From positions 27,538,210 through 27,602,209 of the forward strand of contig OZ316893.1 in assembly GCA_973895155.1 (NCBI GenBank): a DNA stretch of 64,000 bases. Direction: 5' to 3'. Shown here piece by piece: positions 28,071 to 58,668 of this stretch. The translations under genes and the position numbers were made by a program. Numbering within the stretch: the first letter of the stretch is position 1; each line of letters starts with the position of its first letter. The stretch is from Marsupella aquatica (Eukaryota > Plantae > Marchantiophyta). A model generated the notes under the pieces. That model was not told the DNA's origin and made no database searches. It was given only the letters and a program-made list of their open reading frames with translations.

Positions 28071-29662
28071 TACTCTCAGTTTTGTTGCGGATTGACAATG
28101 TCATTAACTCAAAATTATGTTGCTTTACAGGTATGTCGGCCTAGAGAGGTTTTAAAATTGAATTTCTGCAAAAAAAAATTTGGATTTAAAGAATTGCAGA
28201 ATTGTCTCTGGCTTGCTACGTGTCCATTGACACTCAGGTCCTACACTCATTTCAAGAGTTGTGTAAGGACTGTACCACATCTACGAGATCTGTAGAAAGA
28301 TTTTTGCATGGAATATTTTGAAGTAGAAAATGACTTGGTATTTGGCAGGTGACAATCTCTTTCTCTCTCCCTTGTTTTTTTGGCTATCACGTTTTCCCTC
28401 TGTCCCTCTTTGTTTTGTAGATTGTTGTCTGAGAAATCTGAACATGTGTATATCTCTAATGCAGCGTTTCAAGTGTTCTCGGCAATGGACACTTCTGGGC
28501 GAGCACAAAGTGGATGCAGCATAACGTTGGGGAGGGATCTGGGCGCCTCAAAGCTTAGAAGCATCCTTAATTCTAATTTGGGGAGTTCTCGTTTTTAATG
28601 AATCAAAGTTTGGTCCAAGAAGTTTCTCATCTCTTGTGGCCTTGGTGATTGCATAATAGAAAATGAGAGAGCATGAATAGGACAACCTATTGATACTTCT
28701 GGGCCACTTCTGGGCCACAAAGTTGATGCAGCATAAGGAGGGGGGATCTGAGAGGCGTTGTGCTCACAAGCATGTTAATCTCTTTTAACATAACTCTAGT
28801 TTGTTCTCTGTTGTGTACAGTAATGCTATGGCCATCCTATGGGTTTTGAGTACTTCACATTATAAGGTGATCATTTTTTCCTATTCTACCTTTGTGTGTG
28901 TCTTGCAATAAGCTACTTGCTGCATATCACTTGTAAAACTTAAAGTATAAATATAGTGAAGTTTTTGTGTGGTGCAGGACAATTTGGTTTGAAAAGGTTA
29001 TTTCTTGGAGGGTGAAACAAGAGCATTTGTGCCTAATCTCTTTTAAAATAACTGTAGTTTGTATTCTGTTGTGTACAGTAGTGCTATGGCCATCCTATGG
29101 ATTTTGAAGACTTCACATCCTAAGGTGATCATTTTTTTCTATTCTACCTTTGTGTGTTTCTTGCAATAAGCTACTTACTGCATATCACTTGTACAGATTA
29201 AAGTATAAATGTAGTGAATTTTTTGGGGTATAACCACCGTGACAGCAAATAGTAAATAGATTTGCTGTTACGAGCAAAAATTTACTCATATGAGGATTTC
29301 AATTACTCATAGCAGAAATTCTGTTTACTCATACGAGAAACTATTTACTTGTACGAGTTTTATAGGTTATTCAAAGTTCAAAAAAATGGCTCGATGTTAA
29401 AAAATAACACCCATATAAGCGCTCTCTGAAATGCTAACATAATGGGGCCCACCATTCAATGATAATAAATGGGCAATATAAAGGTCATTATAAGAACACA
29501 CGCTTTATTTAACAGTCAATATATTTGCTATTTGTTTCAAATTTTGGCTAGTGCCAGGCGCTAGCAACAGACAACACATTTTTCTGGATAAGAAACGGGT
29601 ACATCTTCTGTCCGTTAGAAAAGACAAATGCCACTTAAAGTTGTTGAACGGCACCAAATTGA

Positions 29663-32600: not shown

Positions 32601-33492
32601 GGTGACAGACAATACCACCTTGCGGTATGAGTTCTCCAACTCGAAAGGTGCCTGATAGTTTTGGTGATCTTGCCCAGACTTGGTTGTTCCTAGTCTTTTT
32701 GTCTCTCCAGAATTGGCAAGAATTGTTCCGACATTCAAGAGAACCGATACACTGAACCTTTCCAAAATCCCACATCTTCTTCGGTAAAACATTCGAAGAT
32801 GTCTTGACAATGCGCGTCCAGTAATAGCAATCCTTCCCGCGGTCCATGTCCTTCAGTCGTTCCCCTTTCGAATTCATGCAATCGACTGGAGGCAACTCAA
32901 ACACAACATTCCCATTGTATGTCATCGGGAGGCTGGGAACTATCTGATGCGTGAAATCCTTCTCCCTGATGAAATGAGATAACTCGCTATGTCCCTTTGA
33001 TTTTAGGATAGTATCCATCGCACTTTGCCGATATACAATTGGGATATCTTGAACCTCCATCTTCACCACCAAGGGATCCACTGAGATCCTTTTCGGGACA
33101 TCAAAGGAAAGGGGTGAATTCTTCCCGTCGTCTTCCGAAGTGTCAGACAGATTGACAACATCAACACCACCGGGAACAGGACATAGATCTTCCGATGCTT
33201 CAGAATCTTCCAAAACAAAGACCTCGTATACTTTCTTCGGATACATTGTCCAAAACCTGAGTCCATCGACGACATCATAGAAGATGGTATTTGCCTTTGA
33301 ATCCTTAGGGAGGAGGGACACAGAGAGAATACACTCTTTGGAAACATCAAATCTCAACCCCAAGTATTCATCCAAAACTCTCCTTGACTGAGATTCAGGG
33401 GATACGATAACTGTGACGACATCCCACGTGTCCTTGCGTCTCACTACGATCGATCGTCCCATTTCAGCGGAAGATAGTAATCGATGTCTCAC
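29663..33492 (-). pseudogene. MULE transposase: GCM-like Zn domain + DDE core + SWIM finger
   Basis: CIGSLECRNNSC..CHHC..C..HMGFHNHP (GCM/WRKY-like). D1 in SFDVMHR, D2 in FMADNAQAGWNAVQNVF, DAFH (CxxH position) and E in GLESIHAGMK. SWIM CSCEDF..PCKHL. Intron 31465-31184. Stops at 32281 and 31705, frameshift near 31485. Confidence 0.85.
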
Positions 33493-34108
33493 TTCCCCAA
33501 TCGGTTTAAGGCTTGTTTGATGTACGAGGTTAATAACGACAGTATAAATGAACGTTGAATAATGACAAAGAAAGTTATGTTAATGGTTTGGACGATGTAA
33601 ATCAATTGAATTTTGTCATTATTCAACGGCTGTATTGAACCAGCTTAATTGTCGGGAGTTTAATAGCATCGGGCGCTACTTTTGTGAATAGGGAACAACT
33701 TGACAATGGAAGCATGACTCTCGACCGAATACAGTACTGCATGGCGAGGAGGACAGGGAAAACTCAGATCGTAATAATAGCGCTCGGCGCTATCATCAAA
33801 GCTCGTACGTTCTACCTCTAACAATAGATAGGAAATCCGTGAATCGGTCCAAGTATGCACGTGTGCATTAAAGTTTCCACAATCGACGCATCTCGGACGT
33901 CAATTGCACGGTCGGAAACCATTACATCTAAGACATCCATGGAAATCCGAACGTTCTCACCTCTGTCCTCAAAACCTGGCCGGCGAGTCTGCCTCTCACC
34001 ATTTGAAGTTGTTTGTTCTTAGAAACATTTTTTGCTCTCCTGCGTCCATTTTTATACGAGAAACTTCCGTTCAGTCTTGATCGTTTAGAGTCGTTTGTTT
34101 AAGTTTCC

Positions 34109-37100
34109 ATGGCTCCACCACGAGCTAAGGGGAAGGCGCAAGTTACGTTTCAAAGCGGCAGCGATGGAGAGGGCGTTGAGGAGAAGTCTCTCGCGAAGCC
34201 TCCTTCTCATTTGAACGTCCCGATCTCGGCGAAGGGGAAAGTAATTGCGAAAACCCGGGTTGTATCCGCACCAGATGGTGCTCCTTAGGCTAAAGGTTCA
34301 AGACCCAAGGTGTAAACCTCTTGAAGGTGGTTTCAAGGCTAGGGTTTGGCCTTGAAGAGGAGAATGAGTGGGAAGAGTTTGTTAAGAAGATGAAGCATCG
34401 ATTTTTGATGTCTGATTCTGAGAGGATGACTGAGGGTACCTTTTTGGACTGGATTCGTGAGAGGAACAAGGGGTTGGGGCCAGAGGAGCTTCTCTTGGAA
34501 TTCAAGAGAAAACTTGGACAATTGCCTTCTACTGACCTTGAATTCCTTTCCCTGCAAAAGGTGTCCCTATTTTTGCGTTCAGCTGATAAGAGGCTTAGGG
34601 ATGAACTTGAGTATGCAATTGACATTGTTAACCCTCGTAGAAGGTCTAAGGTAGATTGGAGTCATGTGGAAGAAGCTGTAGAGATCATTTCTAAGAGGCG
34701 AAGAGATAGAGCCTTGGATGATGAGGCTGTTGCAAAGCCAACAGCTGCTCCATCTAAGGCAGGTAAGGGGAAAGTAAAGGAAGAGCCTTCCAAAGATGAG
34801 AAGGGGCTAGAGCCATCTGACTTGGCCAAGATCCTTGAGAGTCTAAACTTGTTGTCTAAACAAGTGTCTGGTCCAAAATCAGGGCCATGAGAAGGTGATA
34901 GGGCAGGTCCAAGTCGAGCTACAAATTGGTCATGTATGTGGTGTGACTCAAAGGAGCATCAAAAGAAGGAATGTCCAGATCTTCCCAAAGCCATTAAGAG
35001 TCATAAGGTTAAGTATGTGGGTGAGCCAGGCATGAGGAAACTTGCCTATTTTGAGTCAGGAGAGGAGATTCCTTTCAACAATGGAAAAGGAGGGATGAAA
35101 GCCTTGGTTGAGAAACGTTTGACTGAAGCTGAGGTAAAAATGGTATCTCTTGCATTTGAGCCTGAGGTTTACACCTTGGGTCTTGAACCTTCATCTTCAA
35201 GAGGTTCGCTCCTACCTATTCAAAACTTACTCAAAGACTCAAAAACTGCCAAAAGCGGCAGCACTTTAGCAGCATCACGGTGTGAGAGAGAGCCCTTGCC
35301 CTTCGAACTCTCCTCTTTAGTACTCTCGTGGGAAGGCCTGGGGCAAGGCACAAGCCCTCCACTTATGGTTTAAGTCCTCGACAATTTTCAGCCCTTGATC
35401 ATCCATCAAAAAATCTAAGGGTCAAAAATGAGCCAAAATACCATCCTTTGTAACTTTGTAACCAAATGAGGCTTCGCACTTTCGAAAAAACCTCGACCTC
35501 CTCCAAACCCTAAGGCACGTCCTCATCCTCAATCCTATCCATTCATCCATTGACTCAACCAAGATCCACCGTTGATGTAGGTTCAATGAATCTAGTCCTT
35601 ATTTCACAAAACTAGGAATCTGGCCCATATCTCACAAAACTGATGCACTTGGACCAAACCCTCTTACATGCCTTGAACCTGGTCACCTCCTCCATGTATT
35701 CAATGAACCTGGTCACCATGTCGCCAAAACCCTAGATACCTTGCTTGTTGAGCAAGCAACCTCCATTCCGCCAATCCGCCAAATGATAACTTAATCGCTG
35801 GTCACAAATGAAAAACATACCCCACAATAGTAACAAGGGTGGGTAGGCTCGACCTCATCCCTACCTTGACCCTCATAACTCTACTTCCTCCTTCACATTG
35901 GTCAAGTTAGCTCAAGTCAAGTCAACTTGCCCAAGTTAGAAGCAAAAATTGGTTTCAACTTCCTTCACAAAACATGAGGATTCCTCCTTTAGGATGGAAA
36001 CCTCATGACATCGGTGTTGCTGGAATTTCAATGGACGATTACATTTCCAAGCATGTCTTGTCCTTTGGGAAAGATTTCAGAGGATTGGAGAAGGAGCCTC
36101 CACAAATTCCTCTATGTCGATTGATTCATATGGAAGTGGTGCGGACGTTGCAGAAGCAGAGCGCCTCCATCGACAAATTGAAGAAGTCATTCCGGATTTC
36201 TGGATACAATTCGCGCATGGGCATGCCATTTTACGTACAGCCAACAAATGCGGATGGGGTTCCATAGATTTGCACTAATGAGATTAGAGCCTCTTGGGAC
36301 CCAATCTGGGTTGCCGAGAATGACAAGTTCGAGGAAGAGTGTGACGTTGATCCTGATTTCAGAGTTTTGAAGGACAAGATATTGTGTGTCTTCGATGGAA
36401 ATCACCGTTTGTATTCGTGGTCGATTGTGACAGCAAAGCAACCGGACAACATTAAGTACCACCCTCATGTGACTTGCATTGTTTTCAATGGAGATAAAGG
36501 TTCCCTCGTGGAGCTCGAGGCTGCCATGCACGCTGTCAACCAGTAAGCCATTCCTCAGGACAACCTCATTTAATATGACGTACTAGTTCAAGATGGATTT
36601 TGGATGTGATATTATCTTTGGTGTTTTACTAGCGCCCGGCGCTGCTAATTTACATTTAAATTTTGACGTAGGTTGGGACAAGCTGTGGTCGAGCCGTCTT
36701 GGATTCTTGATGCCGACATAATCTCTCGTCTTTTATCCCGTGACCTAGAGCACTACAAACCCCTAATTGATGCTACGAGTTATGCTAAGTTTGAAGCCAT
36801 TCGAAAGAAGACTCGAAAGGGTTCTTGGTATACACACAAGATGCCACAAGACGCGCTCATCTACATTTTGTGTGAGAACAAGATTAAATCTTACACAAAC
36901 CAGTTCAAAGTGGACATGGATTTTGCAGCCGCCCAGGGGACTCCGTGGTCCGAAGAGGAGACGCAGAAGAGGCATGAAGCTATGATGAAGGAAGCGACAA
37001 AAGACTGGGCTATCAAAGTAACAAAGATCACTCCATTGCTGCACCCTGATTTTGGTGACTACTTGGCTACATGTTCCGAAATGTTTCTTGTCACAGAGAA

Positions 37101-39580
37101 GAACAAAAGAGAAAAAAAGCCCGATACAGTTGTTTGCACTATGGACTGTGCTCGTCTGTTTACTGCAGTTACTTATCTGGATCCGAAGTTAAGGTGTACC
37201 CTTCTCGTTGCCCATTGCACTCCGGAGATTCGGAAACAGTTCTTTCATCCGGCTAGTGTGAACGACAATCCTGTAAAACAATGGTGCCATACCTGGCATA
37301 TCTGGAATTAATTGGAGGAAATTGCTACTGGATTGATCCTCACCTCGCTCGAGCAGGTTTTGGATTGCATGCCAGATGATCGTCTTGTCAAGTCTGGTTG
37401 TGAGTCCCTGGATGTTCTCATGAAGTCCATTATCAAAGAATTCAAATCATTTGGAGACCTTGTCAAGGCTAAATTTTTCAACATAATGTGGCCATCAAAG
37501 TATGCAGACAAGGAGGACTACACTGAGCGGAACCGGAAATGAGCGAAGCGATACGTTTACCATTTCTACATGTGGATGGAGTTGCGATCTCCTGAGGTTT
37601 TGTGGGCTTACCCTGGTGCATTTCAAAAGTGGGTGATTATCAAAGATGGTGACCACCTTGTTGATCTGTATTCGATGTACCCAGCTGAGGGAAAGTTCCC
37701 ACCTCGCGCCTTGTCAGAGTGGGAGAGACTCCACTGCCCATGGTATCTTGACACTGACAAATGGGATCTGCCTTTCGACGAGGTGGAGAAAGACGCTTTC
37801 ATGAAGTTACAGCAGTCGCAAATCCCAGCAAGGTACATATCGGAGATGAAGCAGGGTCTTGCGATTGAAGTGGACGCTTCGACAACTGAATTGCAGAAGA
37901 AATGTGAGACAGTCATCGTGCATGTTGACCAGAGCCGAAAGCCAAGAGTGAAGGCCAAGAATGAATGATCGCTTAAAAAATGTTAAGTTTGCCTCTTAGG
38001 ATTCAGTAAAGTATTCCCGCTCTTGTTTGTATGACGTATTTTCCCCCAATTGATACTAGCGCCGAGCGCTATTATGAAAACTAGTTCCGTTGAGTACCGT
38101 CTCTCCATCTTTCAGGGGGAAGGAAGTCGGATGCTACCGGTGATGTAAAAAAGGACGCTACTCCTTAGGCCTCTGAAGCTAACACTAGTGCGGAAAATAC
38201 ACCAGATCAGGGAACCCCTGGGGAGAGTGGAAAGACAGTGGTTCCAGTGGACGCGACAAGTATGAAGAAGAAGGAAAAGAGAGGAACACTTGAGGATAGG
38301 CTCGGATCTTCGTCCCAAGATTCAGTTGCGTCTACTGGATTGCAAAGAGATGTGGGGAATTTCAAACAAAAGTGTACTCGACATTGTTTTGTGGAGTCGA
38401 GTGTTACATAATGTTTTGATTCCTTGTTTAACAAGGGAGAAAAGCCGGACTGGGTTTCTAATATTGAAGGTTGGGGGAAAGAGCTAGTGAAGTCTGGGGA
38501 TCGAGCAAAAGGGGTTGTCCGAGGGGGAAAAGAAAGAGCTTTTGGAGTTGATGCTGGTTTCATATATCTTCCAACTGGGTTGAAACCAACACTTGTGGAT
38601 AGGAAGGTTCCTAAATGGAACCTTCAAGATTATACGATTCCAAGTGCCTTTTTCAGAACAATGGATCCTTTCCTAGCAGATGATGGATTGCTAGCAATTT
38701 TGCACAGAGGCGACTATGACCAAGTTTCCGAGGTCATTGCAGCTTGTCAAGATTCACAGAAATTCCAGTGTATCTCGACACACAATGTTGTCATGGGCAC
38801 TCCAATGTACAGGCCTCGCTCGGATATGCAGGTATGTATAGTAGCGCCTGGCGCTATTCCAAAGTTTCTGTTTGGTGTCCTCCTTTGGAGATTGACGGCG
38901 ACGCTAGCGCCAGGCGCTAGTGTGGAATATCCTCTTCGTGAAATGTTTCCGTATTCTTGACGTAGCATCTGATGTTTATTATGAACAAAACGTTATTCGA
39001 TGTGCAGATTTTTACGCTCACTCTCAATGTTTTTGGGCGTGTTTCGTCCAAAGGTAGGGTCCCTAAGGATCCCAAATTTCGGCCTCTTTCACATACAGAG
39101 GATCCTTCAATAACCAATCTCATTGGTTTTCCCGTGCCAAAAAATGATCCTCTGCCGGAGCTTGCGTTCGCCGGGAATTCAAGGCTGCCTGTGGGTTTCA
39201 TGCAGTCCGTTTTAGAATTAATTACCCTCCCTGGGGATATTGTCATGGACTAGACTGTTGGGGCCGGAAGTACATTTGTTGTTGGAGATCATTGTGGGAG
39301 GTTTGTAGTTGGGATTGAAAATCGTAAAGAGTTTCTTGACACTGCCACAAAAGTTTTCTTTGGACTTCTCGAGAGTAAAGAGGCCTCCACGTCCACGCCT
39401 CCGCACCGGCAGGTGGGGAGTAAGAAGCAGGACAAACTCCGTTCTGTTCTTAATTTTGATTCTGACGAGGACAATGATGGAGGCGATGGTACGCAACAAT
39501 CTAAAGATGATGGGGTCTCCAAGAAAGTGGTGAACCTCGGGTCTTCTGAATCTAAGGATAGTGAAGAGTCTTTTGAGTAA
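34109..39580 (+). pseudogene. ParB-like domain + beta-class N6A/N4C DNA methyltransferase-like fusion gene (element 1)
   Basis: ATG at 34109. ParB-like IPLCRL..VVR..IDKLKKSF..SGY..PFYV..FDGNHRLYSW. MTase-like VDAGFIYLPTG, PFLADDGLLAILH and RLPVGFMQSVLELITLPGDIVMD*TVGAGSTFVVGDHCGRFVVGIE. Introns 36543-36672, ~37985-38114 and 38832-39007. Premature stops and a retroelement insertion in exon 1. Confidence 0.75.
34287..35983 (+). mobile_element. Rearranged Ty3/gypsy-like gag fragment inserted in exon 1 of the ParB-MTase gene
   Basis: Gag-like ORFs 34321-34890 and 34936-35373 with Zn knuckle CMWCDSKEHQKKEC. Flanked by a CTCCTT duplication. Removing it restores the frame (PDGAP-LGWKPH). Confidence 0.7.
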
Positions 39581-39639
39581 TGATCTTCAGCTTCCCTATC
39601 TTTTTTTTCTTTTTAAGTGTGACGTTAGTGTCTCCAACA

Positions 39640-40010
39640 TTCCACCATTTTCTCGGACCCGACTGAAGATATTGAATTCAACTTTCCAGGTCTGAGTGGA
39701 ATCTTTGGAGGCGCTTTCAACTACGGAGGAAAGTCGCTAGGAATGCAATAGAAACCCCGGAGAAGCTGTTTGTCTTGCCTTCTTATGCAGAAAAGGCGGC
39801 TTGAAAAGCAGATTCTGTGAGAATGCTGACTTGGGAAAGCAAAGGCCTGAGGCTCAAAAGGGGTCTGATAGAAAGTTTATGAAGAATCGCTATGTCGATG
39901 ACATCGTCCCGAGCAAGTATGTAGACGACGAAGCTGAGTCTACTGATAGATCACAAAGTAGTGAAGAAGAATCAGAACTAGATTCGACTGATTCAGAATC
40001 TGATGGCTAG
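39640..40010 (+). pseudogene. Small conserved acidic ORF/exon of element 1
   Basis: TPEKLFVLPSYAE, LTWESKGLR and YVDDEAESTDR align with ORF 57018-57455 of element 2. Disrupted by a stop and a frameshift. Confidence 0.6.
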
Positions 40011-41540
40011 CCAGACTTTAAAACTATATTTTGGGGATATAGATATTGGCTATTTTACAAAATAGCGCTTGGCGCTATTGTGAACACATGTAATATTGAT
40101 GGGTGTTTATAAAGTGAGACGGACTGTCCACATTGTTTTTTGACTAAACTTTCCTTTGTGAAGCGGACAATCTTAACTTGGGATGTATTACAATTGGGTG
40201 TTTACCCTAAAGTTGATCTCTGTTTTTAAGTCTGTTATTGAGGTCTGTATACTAGCGTCGGGCGCTAGTATACATATGTTTTGGGGGATACTTTTGCAAA
40301 TAGATGTTTCAGGACTGTAGCGCTGGGCGCTAGTATTACGATGTGTTTCAAAATGATGGATTTTAGAGATTTCGATCTCATTTTACGAGAGATGTCGGAT
40401 TAGGGAAGATTTTTTTGGTGCAGACATTTGCTGCTATGAGCTTTACTGTTTGTTGTTTGCTGTTTGCTGTCACCGTGAAAAGCCTCAAGTTTTTGTGTGG
40501 TGCAGTAGTTTTGATTCTCAAGTTGGCATGGCAAAGTTGGGATTAATTCCTGAAAGATTAAAGTAATTCTTCATGCAAGGGGAAGTAATCCTTGAGATGA
40601 TAGTGCAACTGGTATGCTCCAACTGTACCTTTAACTGTTAGATTGAGCTCATCATATTCCTCTGCCCAGGTGAAGAATGTCCCAACAGAGCCTCTACCCA
40701 GGTGAATTTTCATTTTGTCTAACTAATTGAAACCAGACTGTCTAGCAATTATTTCACATAATAGAGATTATATGGTGTCTCACAACTCTTGTGTGTGATT
40801 ACAGGACTGTTGTTGCATCAATTGTACATGTCTTGCCATGATCAATTTCTGGTGAGCAATGAAATCACTCCTTGAGCAAGTTTGACAAAGTTCACGGAGC
40901 ATAAGCTAGTTTGGGGGATAGGATTAGATGGTCATGATTGCCCACATAGTCAATCTATTGACAGTTTCTGAAATGTACAATTGTTTGAAATAATAAAAAT
41001 GTTTGGATCCTTTCAATATAAGATCTAGGAGTTCTTTGAGTTCTTTATTGTGAATGTCATATACATGATGTTTTTGTTATTGTTTAGTGGTTTCCAATCA
41101 TTGTGATGTAACATGTTTACATTTTTAATCTTGTTGTGGGTCTTGTTGTGGACTCATTGTGGATTTCATTTTGAATATCAATCATGTGAATCTGTGCAAG
41201 ATCTCACCTCCCATGAACCCTAAAACCTGAGACACCCCAATTAATGACATCCCAAATGACTTCACCTAATGACATCTCATAAGACAACCCTAATTGACAT
41301 GCCATATGACATCTTAAATGACACCCAGTATGACTCTAAAATGACTCCATAATGACTACACGTGTTGCATGTTCACTTGCTAAATAGCTGTCATTTGCAA
41401 TAGTCATTTGAGACATGACTGAAATAACTACTAATATTGCCCACCTGGTCAACTGGCATTGGGCCATGTGTCATATTTTCATTGGTGGAAACATATTTAG
41501 TCATTTCTGAAATGTTGGTAATGACTAGAAAAAAGAGGAG

Positions 41541-45864: not shown

Positions 45865-46159
45865 CTCGGGGGTCTCACTATATGGGGACCTCCCCATCAC
45901 CTGCGACGTTTTTAGGCCTCGGACCCCCTAAAGTAAGAATTTTTTTTAATTTTTTAACCCCTATAAAGTTGGAATATTCCAAAAATATTCCAAAAATTGG
46001 ATTAAAAAGATCCTAATGTTCTTATAAGTCTCAAAATTGAATTTAAAAGACCCTATTGTTCTTCTACAAAAATTCTTAAGTCTTCCCTTAGAACCAATAA
46101 AATGACCCTATCTTTTATCGCACGTGATATGTCATTTTTGTGGAAGTGAAACCCCCAAG
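45865..46159. mobile_element. MITE, CTCGGGGG TIR family
   Basis: Same family as 41541-41837. TSD GATTGATC/GGTTGATC (one mismatch). Confidence 0.85.
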
Positions 46160-49100
46160 GGTTGATCTGCGTGTGCTGGTACAATCTAAAGCTCAGCAGC
46201 ATCCACTTGTTGCTCACCAACATCAACAAACTCCTCTGGTTCCTCTGGCACAGGAACCAATTTCATAATTGGAGCAACTCCTTCTCTCCGGTCATGCATC
46301 TCATGACCAATCTCCCCCTCAATGAGATCCAGGATAGGAGATTTTCCTTTGTCAATACGGGAGACATGAGTATTCTTCCCCCCTTCAATAATCTGGATTT
46401 ATTGAAGGAAACATCCCTACTGACAACCAGCTTACAGGCAGTAGGATCTATAGCCTATAGGCTTTCACACCACTCTGGTACCCAAGAAAAACACATTTTT
46501 TGGAGGTAGGATCCAACTTGGTCCTATTTTTCTTCGGTGTGAGAGCGTATGCATCACTTCCAAAAACTACCAAGCCATGATAGTCTGCTTGCCGCTTATA
46601 GCGCATCTCAAAGGACAACGTTTTGAAATTGATAGCACTAGAAGGAGAAAGATTATTTTACCAAATAAGCTATGGTATTGACAACTTCTACCCAAAATTC
46701 TTGTGGTAAACCTGATTGGCTCAACATACTCCGTGATTGCTCCAATAGTGTCTGATTGAGCCTCTCAACGACACCATTATGCTGCGGAGTATAAACTGTG
46801 GTGAGATGGTGAGTTATCCCCTATTCTGAATAATACTCTTCAAATTCCACTAAAGTGTACTCCCCGCCGTTGTCTGACCTCAGGCTCTTCACCCTTGTAT
46901 CCAAACACTTGACCGTGTTTCCAGTCTGATTCTCCACCTCGGCCTTCCACTTCTTAAAAATGGACAAGACATCAAACTTATGCGTCATGAAATAAATCCA
47001 CATTGTAAATCTTGAGTAATTATCAATAAATGATACATAATATAACTTTCCAAGGTATGAGGGAGTCGGGGATGGACCCCACACGTCACTATGTATGTAC
47101 TCAAGAACCGCCTTGGAACGTTGTGTTCCAACACCGAAAGCACGACGATGCTGCTTTCCAAGAATGCAATGCTCACAAAACTCTAATTTACAAGATTGCA
47201 AATCATAAATGAGTCCATGCTTCCGTAAGATAATCTTGAACGGATAGCCCTTCACGGCTAGACCACAATTGAGTCATCTCCTCGTGAGACTTGGTTACAT
47301 TGGCCTCTCCACATATAGTATTGCCCTGCAACACATACAAATTCTTCTGTTTGCTCCCTCTCAAAATCACTGTCTCTCCCAACCTGACTTGAAGTTCACC
47401 ATCAATAATACTCCATTGATGACCATTTGAATACAACACACTAAGTGAAATCAGATTCTTACACATTTGAGGTACATACCTGACTTCAGACACTGTGCGC
47501 ACAATGTCATCAAATATTTGAATCTTCACAGAGGGTCATTGTAGCGTGCGAGGAAACAGTAAAAAATTTCCTCGCACGGGATCATTTTCTCCTTGGAATA
47601 CCCAAAATTTAGCACGAAAACAACATCGCTAGCAAAAAGTGACACTCGCTAGCCTAAAAGGAACCTTCTATTCCACCTATTTATTTAACTCCCGTTGGGT
47701 TTAAAAAGCGATCCCGACAATGCATTGGTACATATTACGTATTCCCCGGACACGAACGGTCGTCGACGGCACCATAATTCAACATATAATTCTACCGTAC
47801 ATCAGGACAGCGAAGTCGCTAGCCATAACTATGCCCATCATTCTCGCACATTTTTACATATCACGTAATCGTCGCACAACAGTCCACTTAAAGACCCTAT
47901 AAGTGACCATCATCATGGAACGTACGTCAGGCCAGCAAAATCGCTAGCAATCGTGACACCCATAATTCTCGCACGAACTTTGGCGTGCAATCGTTAAAGA
48001 CGTGAATAAATCATAATGACACGGGACAAGGAAGCATGTCTTTTGACTTAAACAATCTCGGGAGCGCATCCAAGGACAGAATCCAAATCTTCATCCAGAC
48101 ACCAAGCGTGAAATGCACAACAGACAAGATCTAAGTACAACCAACAGACAAGATCCCAATCCGTTGGGAAGGATCTCCAGCTATCCACCATCCCCTATAT
48201 CTTACTCGCTTCTTAAGAAACATTTCCATTCATTTCCTTTCAGCCATTCTTTCGGACTTTCATTGGGCTCGACGCTTACTCAAAGCGCGATTTGCTTGTT
48301 GTGTTCCCGATTGTCGAAGCCCTTCCGTGACCTCTGCTACTGTCAGCGAAGCTACTGTCATCCTGGAAACTGTCGTTACTATTGTCGAAGCAAGGAGCAT
48401 ACATTTTCCGCTCGGATCCGGATCGAGGTATCCCCGTTCTCTATCATATGTTGTCCACTTGCAATTTGGTTTTCTATCAGGTATTCGTTGTCATTCGCTT
48501 TCTTGTTCGTCAACATAAGAAGACTTTTTGAAAGATTTCAAGTAAACTTATCGCATTTGTTTTCGTTTCAGGGAGAAATGGCACGGAACGAGGGTGGATC
48601 TTCTCGTAAATGGATTCTGGAAGTTCGGCGATATAACACCGAAACTGACGGTCAACTGGATTCACCTCCAAGGTCCATAGAATCAAAGCAGACTTAGAGT
48701 ACTGTCGACGAACCTAAGAGGAGTACATCCCCTTCCGGTAGCAAGGCTCCCGTCCTATCCAAGGACTACAAGACGGCCGCACCTTGTAAGGAGAAATTGA
48801 CGAATCCGGTCTCCCACACACAAGTTTCTTCTCGTTTGAAAGCGCCTGTCTAGCTGTAAGGGGGTATCGGCAAAGCGGAAGAGAGAAGAGGAGGAGTCAT
48901 ACTAGAGGGACCTCGAGATCCACGACTATTTCACGGAAAACATCCTCGCTTCCTCCCTCTGACTATGATACAATCTCCGACTCTGACTCCGATGCGTACA
49001 AGGCAGCGAGCCCTTGAATAGGAAACAGTAACGGTAGTCCATGGTGTAGGGGCATAGACATTTTGTAGACTGTGTCTATTTTGTAGATCTGGGATCCGAA

Positions 49101-49552
49101 AACGTGATATCGACACTCAATGTCCAACACAGTTGTAAGGGAGAACATCTTTGTTCATTTTGAAATAACTTCTTGAGAAGATTTCCGACTGCAATGTTTG
49201 GACTTACAGTACTAGTTTTGCTAGCGACATCGCTAACAAAACTATGCGTGACTAAAATGGTTTGTTTCTCCGAGTGTATATCCAAAAACCATTTAAAATA
49301 CATGAGTTATTGAACTCTACGTTATGTAGAACTTGGTCAAAAAGAAACCATTTACGGGAAACATAAAACTTTACTTTTACGGGTTTAACGCCAGAGACCT
49401 CGCTAGCAAAATAAACACTATTGCCGATACGTATAGAATAGTACTAGACCCTCGCTAACATTGCATACGCAATATAATTAGTGAGGTGGACGACTTTCCT
49501 ATGTTCTGAAAACCAAAAAGGTGACAAAATTAGGGACGCTGAGACGTTCACC

Positions 49553-52500
49553 TCAACGGATAATAGAGATTAAGTCAACTACACTGCAACGGAATCTGTC
49601 TAGATTCAGTGAGAACTTGTTTAAGTACACCCAAAGGAGGTGTTTACAAGACATATAGGGTCTTCCTCTCGTGTGTCTCTTGTAGAAGTCATCACATGAG
49701 CAAGAAGGAAAGCAACACACTTGGACCCAGTACTTGTGTGCAATTTTAGAATCTGTCTCGTGAGTGACAATAAGATATTGCCATCCCCACCCGTTTCTGA
49801 GGCATATCTTCTCACTTCCAATGACTCTCATATGTTCGTCAGTCGCAGATCGAATGCGTTTTAGAAGCTCCGGGGTGTTCTGGAAACATTGACGAACGCC
49901 TTTCCCATTCCGAGTCTTGAATCTACGGTTTGGAATACCAATGTCAACTCTTTCTGGGAAGGAGTTCACATCATTTTGGAGGTCAACACGATTTGGAGAG
50001 GAGAACGACCCAATTGGTGCTGGATCAGAGTATGATAATCCTCTTATTTCAATCCCATTTCGAAGAAGAAAGTCAATCTCTGTTGGGGTCAGCCTGGTCC
50101 CACGCTGGACTTGCAATGCCTCAGGTGGTTCCGGAAGCTGGGCAAGAGTCCTTCTACCACCTGTTTTATGGCACCTATTATTCGGACAGAAGTATAGAAG
50201 CTGACAATGTGGAGATGACAACCTCAATCCGTGAATCGCAACACCAACCACTCCAGCCCGGAATGCCTTCATTCCAGTTTCTTTGATGAGATTCCTACAC
50301 TCATCTCTTCCAAACATACTTCGGTCCACTCGTCCATTGCAAACAGGTCCACTCCCTTTTCCACTCCGCCTCAAGTGCCAGGTCCCATATGTCACATCAA
50401 CCTCTTCAACAAAAGGGATCCTTCGGGGTGCATCCCGAATTTCATCCCGATTATTTTGAGGCTGTGGTATTTCTCCAACGTAGTTCGGGTCCTGTGTTGT
50501 ATCTCCACGGCTAAGATCTTCACCATCATTTGATATTTTGAGAGACAGTCTAATGTTTCAGTCGGTGACCAAAATACATTTACGAAAGAAGTTTTATTGC
50601 TAGCGATCTCGCTAGCTTAAACTCATCAGAAAGAATTCACCGTTACTCACCACACGAATAAAGTTACCCCATTGTCTCCACCGCACAACCCACCATGAAA
50701 TCCACCCTTGTAGTGATTTAAGCTTGGATGGGTGACAATTCCCCTCTTTCCACCATTTTTGAATGTCTTCGGCGATACGATATGCTTCGACGTATGTTGG
50801 AGCAATTCTTAACTTCTCCCACATCTTATAGTGCTCCGCATGACACCCCTCCTTGATCCCCTCCAAAGTGTGTCTTCTGAGGGATTGAGAGAGATGGAAA
50901 GCATCACTATGCTCTTTCAGAGGATTTCTGACACCCCCAAAAAATACCCTTCTCACAGAAATCCAGCCAGCCTCCGCATTGTCTGCTATGAATCCTCCAA
51001 TAATGGGATTATGCACTCCATTCTCGGATGCGACATCTACCATTAACCTCCACGCAGTTTCAAGCGACTCTGTGTCTTCGGCTCTCAACTCGCAAGTGAA
51101 AATTGTACACAGAGCGCGGTAATTATGGTCATACACGTGTGCGCTGAAGGTCAACCATCCACTAGTGATACGATGCATCACTTCAAAATTGACCCACGAA
51201 CCTTCCAATGCTCCTCCAGCCTCCATGCTCCTCAAAATTTCCACACCCGATCCAGGACCATTTGTACTCATTTTGAATACATGCGCTCGATCATTTCTGT
51301 TTCCTTGACCGGGAAACAGGTACCTCTGCACGAAAGGGAAATTGTTACGTGATTGCATTTCACGAAGTGAGTCAAGTTCTCCTTTTTTAGGATTATCCAT
51401 CTTCACACTCCGAAGAATAGCTTGGAACTTTGGAGCGGTAGAAACTACTCCGATCGAACTCCAAATTTCTTGTTGTTCTTCTCTCGACAACTGAGCCGAT
51501 GATTCTGGATGCAATAGCGAGACAAGGTTCCCAATTGACTGGTTTCTCAGACATGCGGGAGTTGAGACTGGATTCAACCGATGGACCCCTAAAACAACAT
51601 CTTCCGCTGTTTTTCTCGCATAACGAGATTTTCCCTTCCAAACAGGGTGATCGTGGAATCCCATATGCACAGCCAATCTGGACATATGCATTGAAATGTG
51701 ACTCTCCAAACCTGGCTTAGGGTAAACATACAACAGTTTTGCCGGGCATTCTCAAATACAGAGAGGCCTCTCTTCACAGAAGCCACAGACAAGTCCGCCC
51801 TCACTCACTTGCTCTCCAAGACAAAAGATGTCAGTCAGCAACCCTTTCCCTCTGAAAGCGCAGTCATTTTTGACTCCAGTATGTTTCAACTTCCGGCAAC
51901 CCAAATTATGGCATTCAAGATTTCCAGCGCAACGAACTTTCGACACAGCCCAATGAAACCTTGGCTTCAAATTTGCAGATGTAGTGACTAGTCTCGTCCA
52001 AGGATAGCCGTCCTTCTCTCAATCCATATCTTGGAGACCTCCTCCCCTCCCGGCCCCCTCGACTGGAGGAAGTTCAAAAACAACGTTACCATTGTATGTC
52101 GATGGCAGAGTCGAAACCTGACATTCATTCCATTGATTCCCTCTTCTAAATTGTGCAAGTTCACTCGCTCCACTGATATTGAGAAAAGTGTCATAGGCAC
52201 TCATCCGATACACTGTGGTCATGCTATCCCCAGTCCTTTCAATCAAATTTGTCGCTAACCCTTTGGGTTTGGAACCATCTCGTGACTTCATCGAACCACA
52301 AGATGTGTCTTGCCTTATACTCTTTGGAGATATTTCAATGACCTCAGGAGCTCTGTCTTTGGGAGGCGTCCCAAGATCAATCATAGGAGTTTGATGAACG
52401 GGATCTAATTCCATGGGTTCCAAAATGACATCAGGAAAACCATCTTTACTGGACAGAACCTCGACACAAGATCCAACCTTCAGCGTCCAGACCTTCCCGG

Positions 52501-52717
52501 AAGTACTACTGTCCTCTCTCAACTCGTGACTCCGTGGCCCATTTTGAGAATACAACTCAAACAACTTCATGAGAAGGTCATCTTTTGGAATTCCAAAATG
52601 AGTTGCAAGGAATGACTCTGTCACCCTAACCTCCGACGAGTCAGGGGCACTTGGGAGTACCACCACGTCTCCCGTGATTCTACGCTCCAAAACCACCTTG
52701 GAATTCATCGACATCAT
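49553..52717 (-). pseudogene. MULE transposase of element 2 (GCM-like + partial DDE + SWIM), internally deleted
   Basis: Homologous to the element 1 transposase: TYNGNVVFELPPV, CAGNLECHNLGC, HMGFHDHP, FIADNAEAGW, SDAFHL and CSCDDF..SCKHL. Intron donor at ~50648 is at the same position. The ESxH segment is absent. Stops and frameshifts. Confidence 0.85.
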
Positions 52718-53322
52718 CTCTTCTCAGCATACAAAAATACAACGACTATGTTTTGAATCGCCCATACGAATCCTATTTGCAGGACCAAAACTGGGTTTTT
52801 TCCCAACGGAAACAACAATCCGAACAGATTGTCAGTCTGTTCCCGTTGATTTTACCGTTATTTTGTCTTTTACTCAACGTATAGGGACGTCTCCCATGCT
52901 AGCGATCTCGCTAGCTTGGTTTTGATAGTTTTATGGCAAGCAAACTGTTGATTTCAACTCTTTTTAAGGATATCTGTGTCATTGAGTTTATGCCAGCGAT
53001 CTTGCTAGCCAAAAAGTCAAACTGATTTTTGATGAAGTTTACCGTTAGGATCCCGTTGGGAATAGTCAACGGGTACCATAATGTCAACGGTACAAATTAC
53101 ACGGGACACCTGGAGTATTTTGTATGGATAAGATTATCGGTCGTGAAGGTTGTTCTTCGTGTTTTCCAAAAGGTACAACTAGTGGTCCCTGCCAGGAGAT
53201 TTCTGTTATTCCTTACATCGTACTGTTGATCATTGTCAGTATTCACTATCGTAACTCTGTAAGGCTTTGGAAGTTCATAGCAGTTTGTACGGCTGTCCTA
53301 ATTCTCCGAAAGGAGGTGCTCT

Positions 53323-56300
53323 ATGGACGTTTTTGACGCGTGCAGCCGCTGCAGTCTCCGGGCTCGAGCACTCTTCTCCGAAGGGTTTTATTTCATGGAG
53401 TCATTGTTGTCTCCAGAGAGTATTTCTTTGAGAGGATCATTTCAGTCGAGGGAGTCGACAAGGAGAGAAACTAGGTCCACAGCGAACAAGAAAGCGCTTG
53501 CAGCGGGATTGAAGACTCCAAGGCGGCCCAAGATGGTGACAGCGGTAGATGTAGTTGCTCGTGTGTTTGATCCGAGCGCTTCGGAACCTTACACGGTTGT
53601 CATAAACCGTCATCTTCACTCGTTTGGAGTGAATGAGTTTGGATTTGCATTGGCTCCCCCCCGAATTCCTCTGTGCCGGATGAGAAACATGCAGATTGTC
53701 CGGTCTCTGCAGAAGGATTCCACTACGATAGACACATTGAAGTCCGAGTTCAAAACCCAGGGTTACTTCGAGGATGCGCCTCGATTTTACGTTCAGATGA
53801 CAAATGAGGATGGAGAAATCCAGATCTGTACAGATGCCATCCGCGAAACTTGGGATGATATTTGGGTGTTGCAAAACGAGGAGTTTGAGCGCGAATGTGA
53901 TTCTCATGTTTCTTTCCAGATCCTCAAGGACAAAATGTTCTGTGTTTTCGATGGGAACCACCGATTGTATTCGTGGAGCCAAGTGGCGGAGGAACATCCG
54001 GATGATATTAAGTACCATCCTCAAGTGGTCTGCAAGATCTTTAAGGGTGAAAAGAACTCTTTCGTTCAGATCGAGTCGGCTATGCACGCATTGAACAGGT
54101 GGGACTTCTCATGATAAGATAGTTCTGAAATTTCATTTTTACCAGGTCACTTTCAGCTAGCGATCTCGCTAACATGAGGCATGTTGTGGCAGGTTAACTC
54201 AATGTCATGTAGAGAATTCCTGGGTTTTGGAGGCTGAACGCGTCCAGAAGATTCTGAACAATGACTTATCTGTTTACAAAGATATCATCGACGCTGAGAA
54301 TTACAAACTTTTCCAGCAGAAGATGGCCAATGTGCGGAAGGCGGCATGGTATTCGAAGAACATGATGCTGGATGCCTGCACTTATATTCTATCCGCTGCT
54401 AACATTGCATCGCAGACCGAGGACCTTAAGAAGAAATTTGCTCTTAAGGAGGCTCAAGGTGAGCCCCTTTCCAAGGCTGCACAGGACTTAGCAATGCGTG
54501 ACATGATGAAAGAACAACTTGCTGATTGGAATGTGAAAGTTCCAAAGATCGGTCCATTACTAAATCGTGAGTTTGGAGACTTTTTCAAGAAATGTGTCGA
54601 AATGCATAACTACTGTGAGAACGAGAGAAAGGAGGCCCAGAGAACAGATGATAAAGGCAGGGGAAATGTTTCTTGTGGTCTTGATCGAGCTTGATTGTTC
54701 ACTGGTGTGACCTCTTTATCCCCAGAGCTCCGATGTACACTCCTGGAGGCACAGTGTTCGTCCTGAGCTTCGGAAAAAATTCTTTCATCCAGGTCAATTC
54801 TCAGATGGTGAGACTAAGCTTTCGCTTCATCGTTGGGCAATGTGGGAGCAAGTCGAGTCAATTTCGTCTTCCCTCATGTCTAAAATTGTTTCTGAGGTAA
54901 TGCCTACTGTTCCTAAGTCGAGGATCCTTACGTCTTCAGAGAAGACGAAAGCTTCGCTAATCCTTGACATTGAGGAGGATTTTGAGGATTTCCAAACTCG
55001 TGTGAAAACTTGTTTCTTCAAGCAGATTTGGCCACCCAAGACAGGAGAGAAGGTAGACATTACATTGTTTCGGAGGAGAGCGAAGAGATACACGTATCGA
55101 TTTTTTGTAGACAGAGAAGTAGTAGACAAATTTTACTAGTGGTCCTACCCAGCCTGTTTCTCCCCATGGATAGTCGGGGTTAAAGAGGACCCTACAAGTG
55201 ATAAGTTTGGGGAATATTGTATGTTTCCATGCGAGGGAAGTGAAGCTCCGAGGAGATTGAGCAAGTGGGAGGTTCTTCATTGTCCATGGTATTTGGACTC
55301 GGACAAATGGTCTGTGACATTTGACACTGCAGAGAAAGCAGCTCTTCACATGATCAATCGAGGATTCCTTCCGAAATCTTACATCTCCGAGTCCAAATTG
55401 GCACCCACTGATGCTGAAGTTGGTGGTTGCGAGGCGATGGAAAAAGCTTGTCTTGGTGTAGCTACCATAGTGGATAGGAGTCGAGCACGGAAGCCAAGAA
55501 AAGGAGCATTGAAGGACACATCCAAAGATGGGTCCCAGATTTCCGGAAAGCCAAGTAAGTCTGTTAATTGTATGTTACTTTTTATTTTTAAGTCCGGATG
55601 GGTGTCGAATATACAGATACTAATGTCTTTTGCTTCACAGAGAGGAGGAAGGGAGTGGCTTCTGAGAGTTTGAAGAGTGGAGCAGATGATGGTGAGGAAC
55701 CTCAGTCCCCAAATGCCGAAGTCACAACAAAGAGCGCAGTGGATTTAGGAAGTATAAAACGTTTGAAACGGAAGCGGAACATCCAGATTCTTTCAGATTC
55801 GGATGATGAGGAAGTTTCAGTTGCTCAAGGTGTTGCTCGGATGTGTGGTTTGAAGATGGATGGGCAGCAACATTTCCTGGCTCATAGCAATTTGACCGAT
55901 ACTGCAAACTCAATTAGTGTAAGTAAAGTGAGGCCATCTTGGATGGGAGATGGAGATCGATGGATTACTGGGATGTCGAAGAGCGTAGAGTGCCCGAACC
56001 ATGTCGTAATTAATGGAAAGCCTTATGCTGGGATTGGAGCACATTTGGGATTCATTTCTCTTCCCACTGGGCATAGAACAAGCGTTACAGACAAACAGGT
56101 TCCATCTTGGAATGTTTGGAGCAAGAAACTCCCACATTATTTTTTTGGAGTGATGAGACCAATGCTTTCAGACGACGGATATGTTGCTGTCTTGCACAGC
56201 TCAGACTTCAATCACATGAGGCAAATATTTACGGCAGTCGAGCAAAAAAACAAATTCAAACATGTGCAACAATATACCGTTTTGTTGTCCACCCCTTTAT

Positions 56301-57012
56301 GGAGGGCAGATATGGATATTGAGGTAGTTATCCCTTAAATTTCTTGAGAGTTTTAATGCTAGCGATGTCGCTAACAAAATTATAATTTTTATCTACCAAA
56401 CATATCTTGTCTAGGTGTTAATTTTCTATTTTCCGACTAAGTTAATGCTAGCGAGCTCGCTAACAAAGTTAGCATTGTTTCTGATGTATTTTGGTTTTTA
56501 TGCAGGTGTGCACTCTCATCCTGGATGTTTTTTGTCGGGTGGAATTTAGTGCAAAGATTCCTAAAGACCCAGCGTATGTTCCATTGACGTCTTCGGAAGA
56601 TGCAAGACATAAGTCAATGTTGAGTGTTTGTTACCCTAAGACTGACCCCTGTCCAGAAGCGGCTGTTGCTGGATCAAAAAGGCTTTCAATTGGGTTCATG
56701 CAAGTCGTGATGGAATTCCTCATGAAGCCCAAAGATATAGTCCTTGACTGGACTGTGTGTGACGGTAGCTCGTTTTCTGCCGGAGAATTCTCCGGGAGAT
56801 TTGTTGTCGGTGTTGAAGACAGGGACATTCTCCATTGCTGTGCAGAAAAAACTTTAAACAGTGTTCTGGCGAGGCATTCGAGCAAGGCAAAACAGATTAG
56901 GGATCAGCCAGCCAAGGTTAATCAAGACGCTGGGTCGGATGATGAGTTCACGATTCCAGGGGATGAACAGGCTGGGCCTTCAAGCGAGAAAGACGAATTC
57001 GACCTGGAGTAA
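53323..57012 (+). pseudogene. ParB-like domain + beta-class N6A/N4C DNA methyltransferase-like fusion gene (element 2)
   Basis: IPLCRM..IVRSL..IDTLKSEF..QGY..FYV..FDGNHRLYSW. AHLGFISLPTG, MRPMLSDDGYVAVLH and KRLSIGFMQVVMEFLMKPKDIVLDWTVCDGSSFSAGEFSGRFVVGVE. Introns 54099-54192, 55555-55640 and 56324-56505; introns 1 and 3 are at the same codon positions as in element 1. Stops at 54692 and 55137, frameshift near 54760. Confidence 0.78.
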
Positions 57013-57017
57013 AGTAC

Positions 57018-57455
57018 TTGGCCTCTTCTGATGTCGGACTCCCTATTTGGTTTCTTTTGTTTTCTTTATTTTGTTGCTCTTTGTCAACTGATGTCGGTGG
57101 TTGCGTCAGTGATAGGAGGGTGGATTGGTTTTCTGAGGAGAGATTTCGTCTTTGGAGGGAAGTCCAGGAGTCCATTGTGGTTACTCCTGAGAAGCCTTTT
57201 ACTCTTCCGTGCTATGCTGAGACATCGGCAAGGCAGGTTGATGAAGATCCTGTTGTCTTGACTTGGGAGGCGAAAGGACTTCGGTCCATGAGAGGTGCTC
57301 GAAGATATCTGGATTGTTCAAGGTTTATCGACAATGAGGCGGGGACAGTCCGTCAGTATTTAGATGAGTCTGCCGAGTCCACGGAGAGGGAGACCAGTAG
57401 CGATCCTAGTAGTAGTGACATCTCTGATGAATCAGAGGATGAAGTTTATGACTGA
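57018..57455 (+). CDS. Small conserved ORF/terminal exon with acidic tail (element 2)
   Basis: Open 145-codon frame homologous to 39640-40010. The true start is uncertain; a polypyrimidine tract suggests it may be a spliced exon. Confidence 0.55.
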   Translation: MASSDVGLPIWFLLFSLFCCSLSTDVGGCVSDRRVDWFSEERFRLWREVQESIVVTPEKPFTLPCYAETSARQVDEDPVVLTWEAKGLRSMRGARRYLDCSRFIDNEAGTVRQYLDESAESTERETSSDPSSSDISDESEDEVYD

Positions 57456-58668
57456 ACAAGTAAGAGGAAGTAGGACTGGATGTACTGGTCGAGGTCGACT
57501 CTCACCATTTTTCTGTCTTGAAGTTGTTGGCGATCCACACTTTCAATGTCAAGAGGTTCCATATTTTGATGGGAGTTTCTAGTTTTGGTGATCCTTTTTA
57601 GATGATTAAAACGTGTGTGGCTCAAGTATGGAATACTTATGAAAATCATGCAGGATTTTTCATTGTCATATTCGTTTCATTATTGTAAGAGGTGGAAAAC
57701 TGAGACTGTTTTGGCATTGTTTTCATGGAATGTGAGAGAAATTTATCCGCCAGAATGCTTCGCTAACAATGTTGCCTCGCTAGCAAAATCTCCTGTTTCC
57801 TCGCACCATACAATTCCTCCTTCACAGACCCAATACCCTCAATTTGACAGGAGTGATCATTTCCCATTAGAACTAAACCGTTTGAAACAGAGTAAGAATT
57901 GAAAAACTCACGAATGTAATAAATGTGAAAAGAGCAAGCACAATCGAGAATCCACATATCATCTACTCTCCTAGATGACGTGCATAGGGCATACCCCTGG
58001 CTTCATAATACATACTCATCATTGAGTAAATCAGCATCTCCATCAGCCCTAGCCACATTTGTCGATGAAGATTCAGCTGCCTTTCCCTTACAATCTCGCT
58101 TGAAGTGTCCGACCTGGTTGCACTTCCAACATGTCATTTGCCTCCTCTGAGGGGATTTTCCCCTGGACTTAGATCTGGATTTAGATCTAAACTGGGTTCT
58201 ACGGTCCCCAGTTGGTCGCTACATACTCCTCCCACGGTTAACATTGAGGGCAACACCAGATGATGAAGGTTGTGACGTGATGTACATCTTCTGTTGAAGA
58301 TCATCACCAAGCAAAGAACTTACCACATCATTGTACGAAATGGTATCCCTATCACGATGCAACAACACCCGTGATAGAGACTGGTAAGATGGAGGCACTG
58401 TAGAGTCTTCATCATTCAAAGTCTCCCCAAGGTTTTCCAAGTCAACGACCATGTCATTGAAAGCATCCACATGGTCCTGCAATTTTGTACCAGATTCCTT
58501 CATCCTGAAACTCATTAATTTGTAGGAAGTATAGAGCCGGTTCGACAACTCCTTGCGGTGATACTTGCTTTGCAATTTTGCAAACAAGGATATGCAATCT
58601 TTATGTGCACCCAACTGCTTGATGATGGGAGGCATGAGATAGAGTGTAACACACCACACTCCCTGCTC

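Follow-up and report, generated by a model that had tools for sequence, protein, structure and literature searches.

The 64,000-nucleotide stretch of DNA from the liverwort Marsupella aquatica considered here (contig OZ316893.1; the window) contains two related, decayed transposons of the Mutator type, element 1 and element 2, and each of them carries, dispersed through its non-coding DNA, copies of a palindrome that is not found in the other. Besides a transposase gene, both contain an accessory gene whose product is predicted to combine a ParB-like domain with a methylase-like fold. We regard a ParB–methylase-bearing Mutator lineage with dispersed, family-specific palindromes, which occur in three variants, as a real feature; the idea itself has precedents. 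As to the role of the palindromes, the reading that we prefer, and hold tentatively, is that they are family-specific binding sites of the ParB–methylase protein that the element itself encodes, which would act like the anti-silencing VANC proteins.

Two palindromes and a third variant

Motif copies were counted at ≤2 mismatches, and the chance level was taken from 300 second-order Markov simulations per element. Ten copies of TAGCGAnnTCGCTA (motif 2), six of them exact, were found in element 2, and 13 copies of TAGCGCnnnGCGCTA (motif 1) in element 1, seven exact and six with one or two mismatches (Table 1); no exact copy arose in any of the 300 simulations for either element. The half-site TCGCTA was observed 16 times, as compared with a simulated mean of 1.3. 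A rescan of the window reproduced all 14 coordinates of the preliminary description and showed the motifs to be strictly element-specific: at ≤2 mismatches there is no mixing between the two elements, motif 2 having 10 matches in element 2, none in element 1 and a single one elsewhere in the window (1676), and motif 1 having 13 in element 1 and none in the rest of the window. The remaining 42 kb of the window, outside both elements, contain no exact or one-mismatch core site. None of the copies overlaps coding sequence, as 10 of 10 and 13 of 13 fall off the exon map (P = 6e-5 and 4e-8, respectively, for random placement, values that are slightly overstated, given an approximate exon map and the presence of TAG on both strands of the motif).

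When stacked, the copies of element 2 give the consensus GCTAGCGA-nn-TCGCTAGC, and those of element 1 give TAGCGCC-n-GGCGCTA. The contrast originally drawn between the two motifs (GCGA with a 2-bp spacer, GCGC with a 3-bp spacer) thus holds for the inner base (A vs C) and for a 1-bp difference in spacing (a gap of 4 vs 5 bp between the common parts), but it is smaller than was claimed, since the core TAGCG…CGCTA is common to both. The placement of the copies was likewise said to be mirrored in the two elements. This is the case for the promoter (two copies in each), intron 1 (one in each) and intron 3 (two in each), with the introns at the same position and in the same phase; it is not the case for intron 2 (one copy in element 1, none in element 2), the transposase intron (three vs one) or the right end (three full copies vs two half-sites). 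The imperfect copies of element 2 are polar, with all four G-to-A variants in the right half and all four first-T variants in the left half, and its lone non-coding half-sites all read TCGCTA on the plus strand (5 of 5), in equal orientation at both ends. Further TCGCTA half-sites are at 49452, in non-coding DNA, and at 52252 and 54954, in coding sequence. This polarity suggests either that copies were spread by direct duplication, as at 47796/47921, or that the reader of the sites is asymmetric.

A third variant comes from a 2078-bp stretch (L001), the one relative with DNA among 68 candidate stretches from a transposase-profile scan of metagenome contigs; similar scans gave none of 47 in viral contigs and none of 72 in prokaryote genomes. 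Its transposase intron, which lies at the same codon position, contains three uniform copies of TTGCTAGCGC-nn-GCGCTAGCAA (GCGC with a 2-bp spacer), a form that combines the inner base of element 1 with the spacing of element 2. In this homologous intron there are three copies in element 1, three in L001 and one in element 2, which has a deletion there. Each element thus keeps to a single form of the motif, which is not that of the others, and its occurrence as a third variant in the same intron of L001 indicates that it is an inherited feature of the lineage. The intron read-through tails of 171 proteins, scanned for the motif, yielded no usable match. A motif scan of viral contigs returned 14 loci with one site each, which we treated as chance. 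Inside the window but outside both elements, positions 26981-26994 match the third variant with two mismatches and are followed by GCAAAA; this site, near a duplicated segment (26800-26975), is possibly a remnant of another family member.

The elements and their genes

Element 2 is flanked by exact copies of a 9-bp target-site duplication (TSD), CTTCACAGA, at 47524-47532 and 57820-57828, and its inverted arms (47538-47559 and 57793-57814) are 91% complementary. It is inserted in a Copia element, with gag on the right and integrase on the left, and excising it in silico to the empty site yields a single open Copia pol frame. Element 1 also has a 9-bp TSD, whose copies differ by one mismatch. 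The terminal inverted repeats (TIRs) of both elements are short (~24-27 bp) and degenerate, starting with GGGT and ending with CCTC. Both have a two-exon transposase gene on the minus strand and, divergent from it, a multi-exon accessory gene on the plus strand; identity between the elements is 52% in the transposase core and 37-54% in the accessory exons, and their DNA is otherwise hardly alignable. Both copies are dead, with in-frame stops, frameshifts, a nested insertion in element 1 and a deletion in element 2.

Membership of the Mutator superfamily is described, in the available part of one account, by a TSD of 8-11 bp and TIRs that are long, short or absent (PMC6446971). Both elements fit this superfamily, on the basis of their 9-bp TSD, their short TIRs and the ESM Atlas neighbours of a transposase homologue (P0013), which are clusters of Mutator-like elements (MULEs; score 0.94; 168 of 256 features). 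Pfam gave no match for the transposase in the window exons or in the homologues, and no MULE DDE assignment, and it had no sequence match in the PDB; PDB sequence searches overall returned only galectin-type noise or nothing. By eye, the MULE-type motifs FD, ADN, DxFH and ESxH can be fitted; element 2 has FE and is without ESxH, as about 200 codons of its second exon are gone, and this motif is retained in element 1 and L001. Three of the 12 transposase homologues come from Calypogeia fissa. The transposase has a Cys/His-rich N-terminal region, which we take to resemble zinc domains of the GCM/WRKY type and for which Pfam gave no match.

Table 1. Coordinates (window numbering) of the two elements, their genes and their motif sites
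Feature	Position	Strand	Remarks
Element 1, related Mutator-like element, layout as in element 2	29226..40486	none	TSD, motif scan, identity
Element 1, copies of TAGCGCnnnGCGCTA	29549, 31271, 31342, 31403, 33664, 33778, 36630, 38057, 38842, 38905, 40063, 40253, 40318		motif scan
Element 2, decayed Mutator-like DNA transposon	47533..57819	none	degenerate TIRs and 9-bp TSD
Two TCGCTAGC half-sites, 20 bp apart	47626..47653	+	left subterminal
Two near-full motif-2 copies, 47808 (one mismatch) and 47933 (two mismatches)	47806..47950	none	within a 54-bp direct repeat, 78% identical, offset 125 bp
Motif-2 copies 49222 (exact) and 49392 (two mismatches), half-site 49452	49220..49459	none	downstream of the transposase stop
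Element 2 transposase gene, two exons	49553..52717	-	homology; stops at 52021 and 51754
Exact motif-2 copy (50601)	50599..50616	none	transposase intron
Motif-2 copies 52900 (exact) and 52994 (two mismatches)	52898..53009	none	divergent promoter region
Element 2 accessory gene	53323..57300	+	start codon uncertain; stops and frameshift; tblastn to Riccia homologues, element 1 alignment, homologue folds
Exact motif-2 copy (54158)	54156..54173	none	accessory-gene intron 1 (54099-54192)
Two exact motif-2 copies (56360, 56449)	56358..56464	none	accessory-gene intron 3
Two TCGCTA(A/G)C half-sites, 17 bp apart	57760..57784	+	right subterminal

The accessory gene consists of an exon 1 for a predicted ParB-like domain, an exon 2 that encodes a helical region, and exons 3-4 with a predicted fold like that of β-class N6/N4 methylases. 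The ParB exons of the two elements are 54% identical and the exons for the helical and methylase parts 37–41%, which we infer leaves the presumed DNA-reading region room to have diverged. Past the apparent stop of both genes, the stretches 57117-57296 and 39688-39864 are 45% identical (tblastx) and end in an acidic Y(L/V)D(D/E)xAES, which also occurs at the C-terminus of a Riccia homologue (P0044); they are probably a short acidic fifth and last exon. This ending presumably resembles acidic histone-binding motifs. With the first exon of element 2 as query, an index-free search gave a family of 240 clusters at E ≤ 0.001, while word-index searches for homologues with the ParB exon and with a methylase exon gave zero matches. 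Five of the 10 accessory homologues looked up are from Riccia sorocarpa and three from Adiantum, and one Riccia protein (P0169, 1207 aa) spans all parts of both accessory genes in the window. In Adiantum capillus-veneris a homologue (P0109) has the ParB domain and an annotated C-terminal NIF/FCP1-like phosphatase (Pfam E 2.4e-12), which may reflect a genuine fusion to another effector or an error in joining the gene model.

The N-terminal half of P0169 was modelled with a predicted local distance difference test (pLDDT) score of 76.7. In Foldseek its ranks 1-10 are all ParB/Noc (best E 0.085), and VIA superposed the N-terminal domain on 6t1f_B with a Z of 8.1 and a root-mean-square deviation (rmsd) of 2.6 Å over 91 residues; KorB (8qa9_A, Z 8.0) is among the structural matches. 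These comparisons give moderate support for a ParB/Noc-like fold, that is, the N-terminal fold of ParB/Srx. A GxxR-type box, which reads DGNHR in 82 and EGNHR in 13 of 129 rows of the family alignment, is intact in both elements, and we take it to be equivalent to ParB box II. No ParB or methylase match above the cut-off was found by Pfam among the family members scanned.

For the C-terminal part of P0169 (pLDDT 64.9) the model points strongly to a β-class amino-methylase fold, motif order included: Foldseek matched it to CcrM with E 1.2e-11, and VIA to M1.HpyAVI with Z 14.7 (rmsd 3.3 Å over 174 residues) and to the rotifer N4CMT with Z 14.2. A PF01555 match in another homologue (P0170, E 2.5e-5) is under the cut-off. 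In β-class methylases the catalytic consensus is (D/N/S)PP(Y/F/W) and the S-adenosylmethionine (SAM)-binding motif is FxGxG. Neither canonical motif is present in either element: the tetrad reads SLPT in element 2, YLPT in element 1 and DLPT, DMPS, DMPT, DVPF or DFPI in the homologues, which keep D at the first position, and the SAM-binding motif reads TVCDG in element 2 and TVGAG in element 1. The degenerate tetrad and altered SAM-binding motif argue against an active methylase, and for these two elements we consider a degenerate module that engages DNA more probable than a working enzyme.

Some other features of the window were recorded. The insertion nested in the accessory gene of element 1 (34290-35990) contains a gag-like open reading frame with a CCHC knuckle and a weak Ty3 capsid match (E 0.24); its CpG observed/expected ratio is 0.27, and a 40-bp inverted duplication is found at 34281-34320/35164-35203. 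In element 2, a 1.1-kb segment downstream of the transposase (48030-49150) has a CpG observed/expected ratio of 0.95 and no counterpart in element 1; a remnant of a third gene and captured DNA are possibilities, and Pfam gave zero matches in the six frames of this segment. There are tandem duplications at 27380-28060 (unit ~360-400 bp) and 28440-29225 (unit ~230 bp), the second of which is the target of element 1, its unit resuming past 40486. Short repeats at 41550-41880 and 45865-46160 (related: 42730-43050) sit in Copia fragments and have similar ends (GGGGTCTCACTATATGG… / …GAAGTGAAACCCC); judged by eye, the first two are like miniature inverted-repeat transposable elements. Host genes in the window encode a polyphenol oxidase (10127-11917; tyrosinase, PPO1_DWL, PPO1_KFDV) and, on the minus strand, a 2OG-Fe(II) oxygenase (892-1920).

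Candidate binders of the palindromes

In the reading that we prefer, a dimer of the accessory protein would read both TAGCG half-sites by means of the helical region that follows the ParB domain, and family specificity would be set by the spacing (4 vs 5 bp) and by the inner base (A vs C); a dimeric reader is suggested by the two-fold symmetry of the sites, as in ParB/parS and Noc/NBS. The protein, loaded at the promoter, the introns and the ends, would spread along the element in the manner of ParB and maintain its transcription and hypomethylation, much as VANDAL elements are served by VANC. The CpG observed/expected ratio is 0.70 and 0.78 in the elements vs 0.27-0.56 in the adjacent retroelement-rich DNA, and 0.74 in the gene-bearing first 10 kb of the window; the lower CpG depletion of the elements fits hypomethylation weakly, being confounded by coding DNA, age and lineage history. 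In a more specific version, which we think unlikely, this would be a eukaryotic parS-like system: a ParB sliding clamp driven by cytidine triphosphate (CTP), present in liverwort and fern Mutator transposons, would load at family-specific palindromes, drag along the methylase-fold module and mark or shield self DNA, and 1 bp of spacer together with one inner base would recode specificity into orthogonal protein–site pairs.

Several observations weigh against accessory-protein binding with a VANC-like role. The folds are predicted models of a Riccia homologue rather than of the window proteins; for the N-terminal half Foldseek gave nothing at E ≤ 0.001, the VIA Z of 8–9 for ParB/Noc matches sits near the noise band of that tool, and alignment into the DNA-binding helices of ParB has an rmsd of 6-12 Å, so that a helix-turn-helix is not established. 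Some phage ParBs associated with DNA-modifying systems, either by fusion or as partners, have no DNA-binding domain, according to the portion available of one study (PMC13229309). The polar, asymmetric copies and lone half-sites of element 2 are unexpected for a perfectly symmetric dimer site, and the element copies studied are themselves decayed. The 2-kb L001 stretch contains no accessory gene, thereby tying the motif to the transposase only, and in a transposase tree of 15 rows, from which P0008 was omitted, element 1, element 2 and L001, at 52–57% identity, do not separate. The anti-silencing role, finally, would be borrowed from VANC by analogy only. In a quick tree of the ParB domain (129 rows) both elements fall in one weakly supported group. 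The preliminary description had gone further and read the pattern as a co-evolved, subfamily-specific identity code: the element-specific motifs, the third variant, the ParB and methylase folds and the VANC-like locations of the sites are in line with such a code, and the rest would be extrapolated from three loci, with the accessory gene seen in two of them.

The main alternative, which we judge improbable, is that the transposase itself binds the palindromes, for end recognition, synapsis or self-activation through internal and subterminal sites, given the short TIRs. Copies and half-sites do cluster 100-400 bp from both ends, the Cys/His-rich N-terminal region could bind DNA, and the motif of L001 is linked to a transposase gene; in addition, the AtMu1 transposase is reported to bind its own motifs and to activate cognate copies without an accessory protein (bioRxiv 10.64898/2026.08.24.746577). 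In the available part of the same report, however, AtMu1 binding peaks at TIRs and not at introns, whereas most of the copies described here lie kilobases inside the element. Moreover, the lone half-sites of element 2 have the same direction at both ends instead of being inverted, and the TIRs have an element-specific sequence of their own, which the transposase could read.

Slightly less probable still is that the accessory protein binds the palindromes for another purpose, such as KorB-like autorepression, looping or compaction for transposition, or a self mark of N4-methylcytosine or N6-methyladenine. Both elements have two copies in the divergent promoter, and KorB is among the structural matches; but sites in introns and at the ends would be needless for a repressor. 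For a methyl mark, the first catalytic position is D in the homologues and S in element 2, but the tetrad as a whole (D-[LMVF]-P-[TSFI] in the homologues, SLPT and YLPT here) and the SAM motif speak against an active methylase.

We have little confidence that the binder is a transcription factor or chromatin protein of the host, whose site the elements would have captured. The TAGCG/CGCTA core common to all three variants is what a single host binder might require, but two elements in the same genome are cleanly distinct in both spacing and inner base, and the core is absent, exactly or with one mismatch, from the rest of the window. It is about as doubtful, or a little more so, that the palindromes act as structures, either intronic RNA hairpins or DNA cruciforms. 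At 1180-1225 of L001, one copy is embedded in an inverted repeat whose arms match perfectly over at least 24 bp (z -10.9 when folded as RNA), and z is below -2.9 in four of the seven folded stretches; the other three, however, fold no better than shuffles, Rfam gave no match, the flanks of one copy are no more complementary to each other than to those of other copies (p 0.08-0.31 in a pooled permutation test), conservation among copies extends to the sequence itself, and copies also occur outside the introns of transcripts. That the copies are neutral by-products of local duplication and conversion within each element seems least probable. In its favour, some are tandem pairs (the 54-bp repeat at 47796/47921, half-sites 17-20 bp apart) and those of element 2 are polar; but copies kilobases apart have only the 14-20-bp core in common, and they recur in homologous introns of hardly alignable elements and are palindromic in three lineages.

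Relation to described systems

These results can be compared with the VANDAL/VANC elements of Arabidopsis, which are likewise of the Mutator type, with short degenerate TIRs, a 9-bp TSD, an accessory gene and short family-specific motifs in intron, intergenic and terminal non-coding DNA, some copies of which arose by tandem duplication (PMC5735166, PMC10398659). VANC21 binds introns, intergenic and terminal non-coding regions, and the motif of VANC6 is different (PMC5735166). The VANC proteins, however, are DUF1985/DUF287 proteins with tandem-repeat motifs of 8-9 bp, of which those printed in the accessible parts of the reports are not palindromes, as opposed to the ParB/methylase-like protein and the mostly dispersed 14-20-bp palindrome of our elements; VANC binding and demethylation are demonstrated (PMC5735166, PMC10398659), whereas the elements of Marsupella are known from sequence alone. 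No DUF1985/DUF287, SET or 2OG match was found by Pfam in the exons of the elements or in the homologues scanned. The absence of DUF1985/DUF287, the different fold and the palindromic site mean that the elements are VANDAL/VANC-like in layout and not members of that group.

The closest precedent, judging from the part of the preprint that is available, comes from red algae, some of whose elements, of the Plavaka (EnSpm/CACTA) and Mutator types, carry the accessory genes PAG2 and PAG3, and where inverted repeats were proposed, as a proposal only, to be the ParB protein's own binding sites (bioRxiv 10.1101/2025.02.11.637652). Those elements and ours are DNA transposons with a ParB-like accessory protein and an accessory domain like N6-adenine methylases (PF01555). 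In the red algae, as described, PAG3 combines ParB with a 2OG oxygenase and PAG2 a methylase with SET, in separate genes, with tandem repeat arrays beside PAG3 (bioRxiv 10.1101/2025.02.11.637652); here the ParB and methylase folds are in one protein, the host is a seed-free land plant, and the sites are dispersed single palindromes with family-specific variants, so that the described architecture sets the two apart.

As regards bacterial systems, ParB/parS and Noc/NBS share with our elements several palindromic sites, related proteins that differ in their sites, and a GxxR-type box in an N-terminal fold, which for our elements is predicted, and four residues are reported to switch site specificity between ParB and Noc (PMC7383237). 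The differences are that here we deal with a eukaryotic, intron-bearing transposon without ParA in the element, that a methylase fold follows, and that spacer length varies too. The β-class methyltransferases (CcrM, M1.HpyAVI, PvuII, rotifer N4CMT) are alike in fold and in motif order, catalytic before SAM-binding, and differ in the tetrad, which here is degenerate. A chlorophyte fusion of Dam with a helix-turn-helix of the ParB type is described as having only this helix-turn-helix and a methylase of a different group (PMC4738411), and the accessible part of a study of retrotransposon Dam enzymes does not mention ParB or Mutator (10.64898/2026.05.21.726589). In the open-access literature we found no account of a land-plant ParB–methylase Mutator or of its motifs; Fig. 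13 and Table 6 of the Bostrychia preprint may bear on this novelty.

Among transposon proteins, only VANC has been proven to recognise its own family by a diverging motif, to bind it and to lift its silencing, and the available text of one report describes the spreading of this effect away from the sites as enigmatic (PMC10398659). If our preferred reading is true, a ParB-type protein would supply a known loading-and-spreading mechanism for VANC-like spreading, and the three natural site variants allow a direct cross-binding test. ParB-bearing transposons would then extend from red algae, where they were proposed, to land plants, sequence-specific self-recognition would have had an independent origin, and orthogonal DNA-targeting pairs with sites of 14-20 bp might be possible. 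Each transposon family would, in that case, recognise and protect its own copies only.

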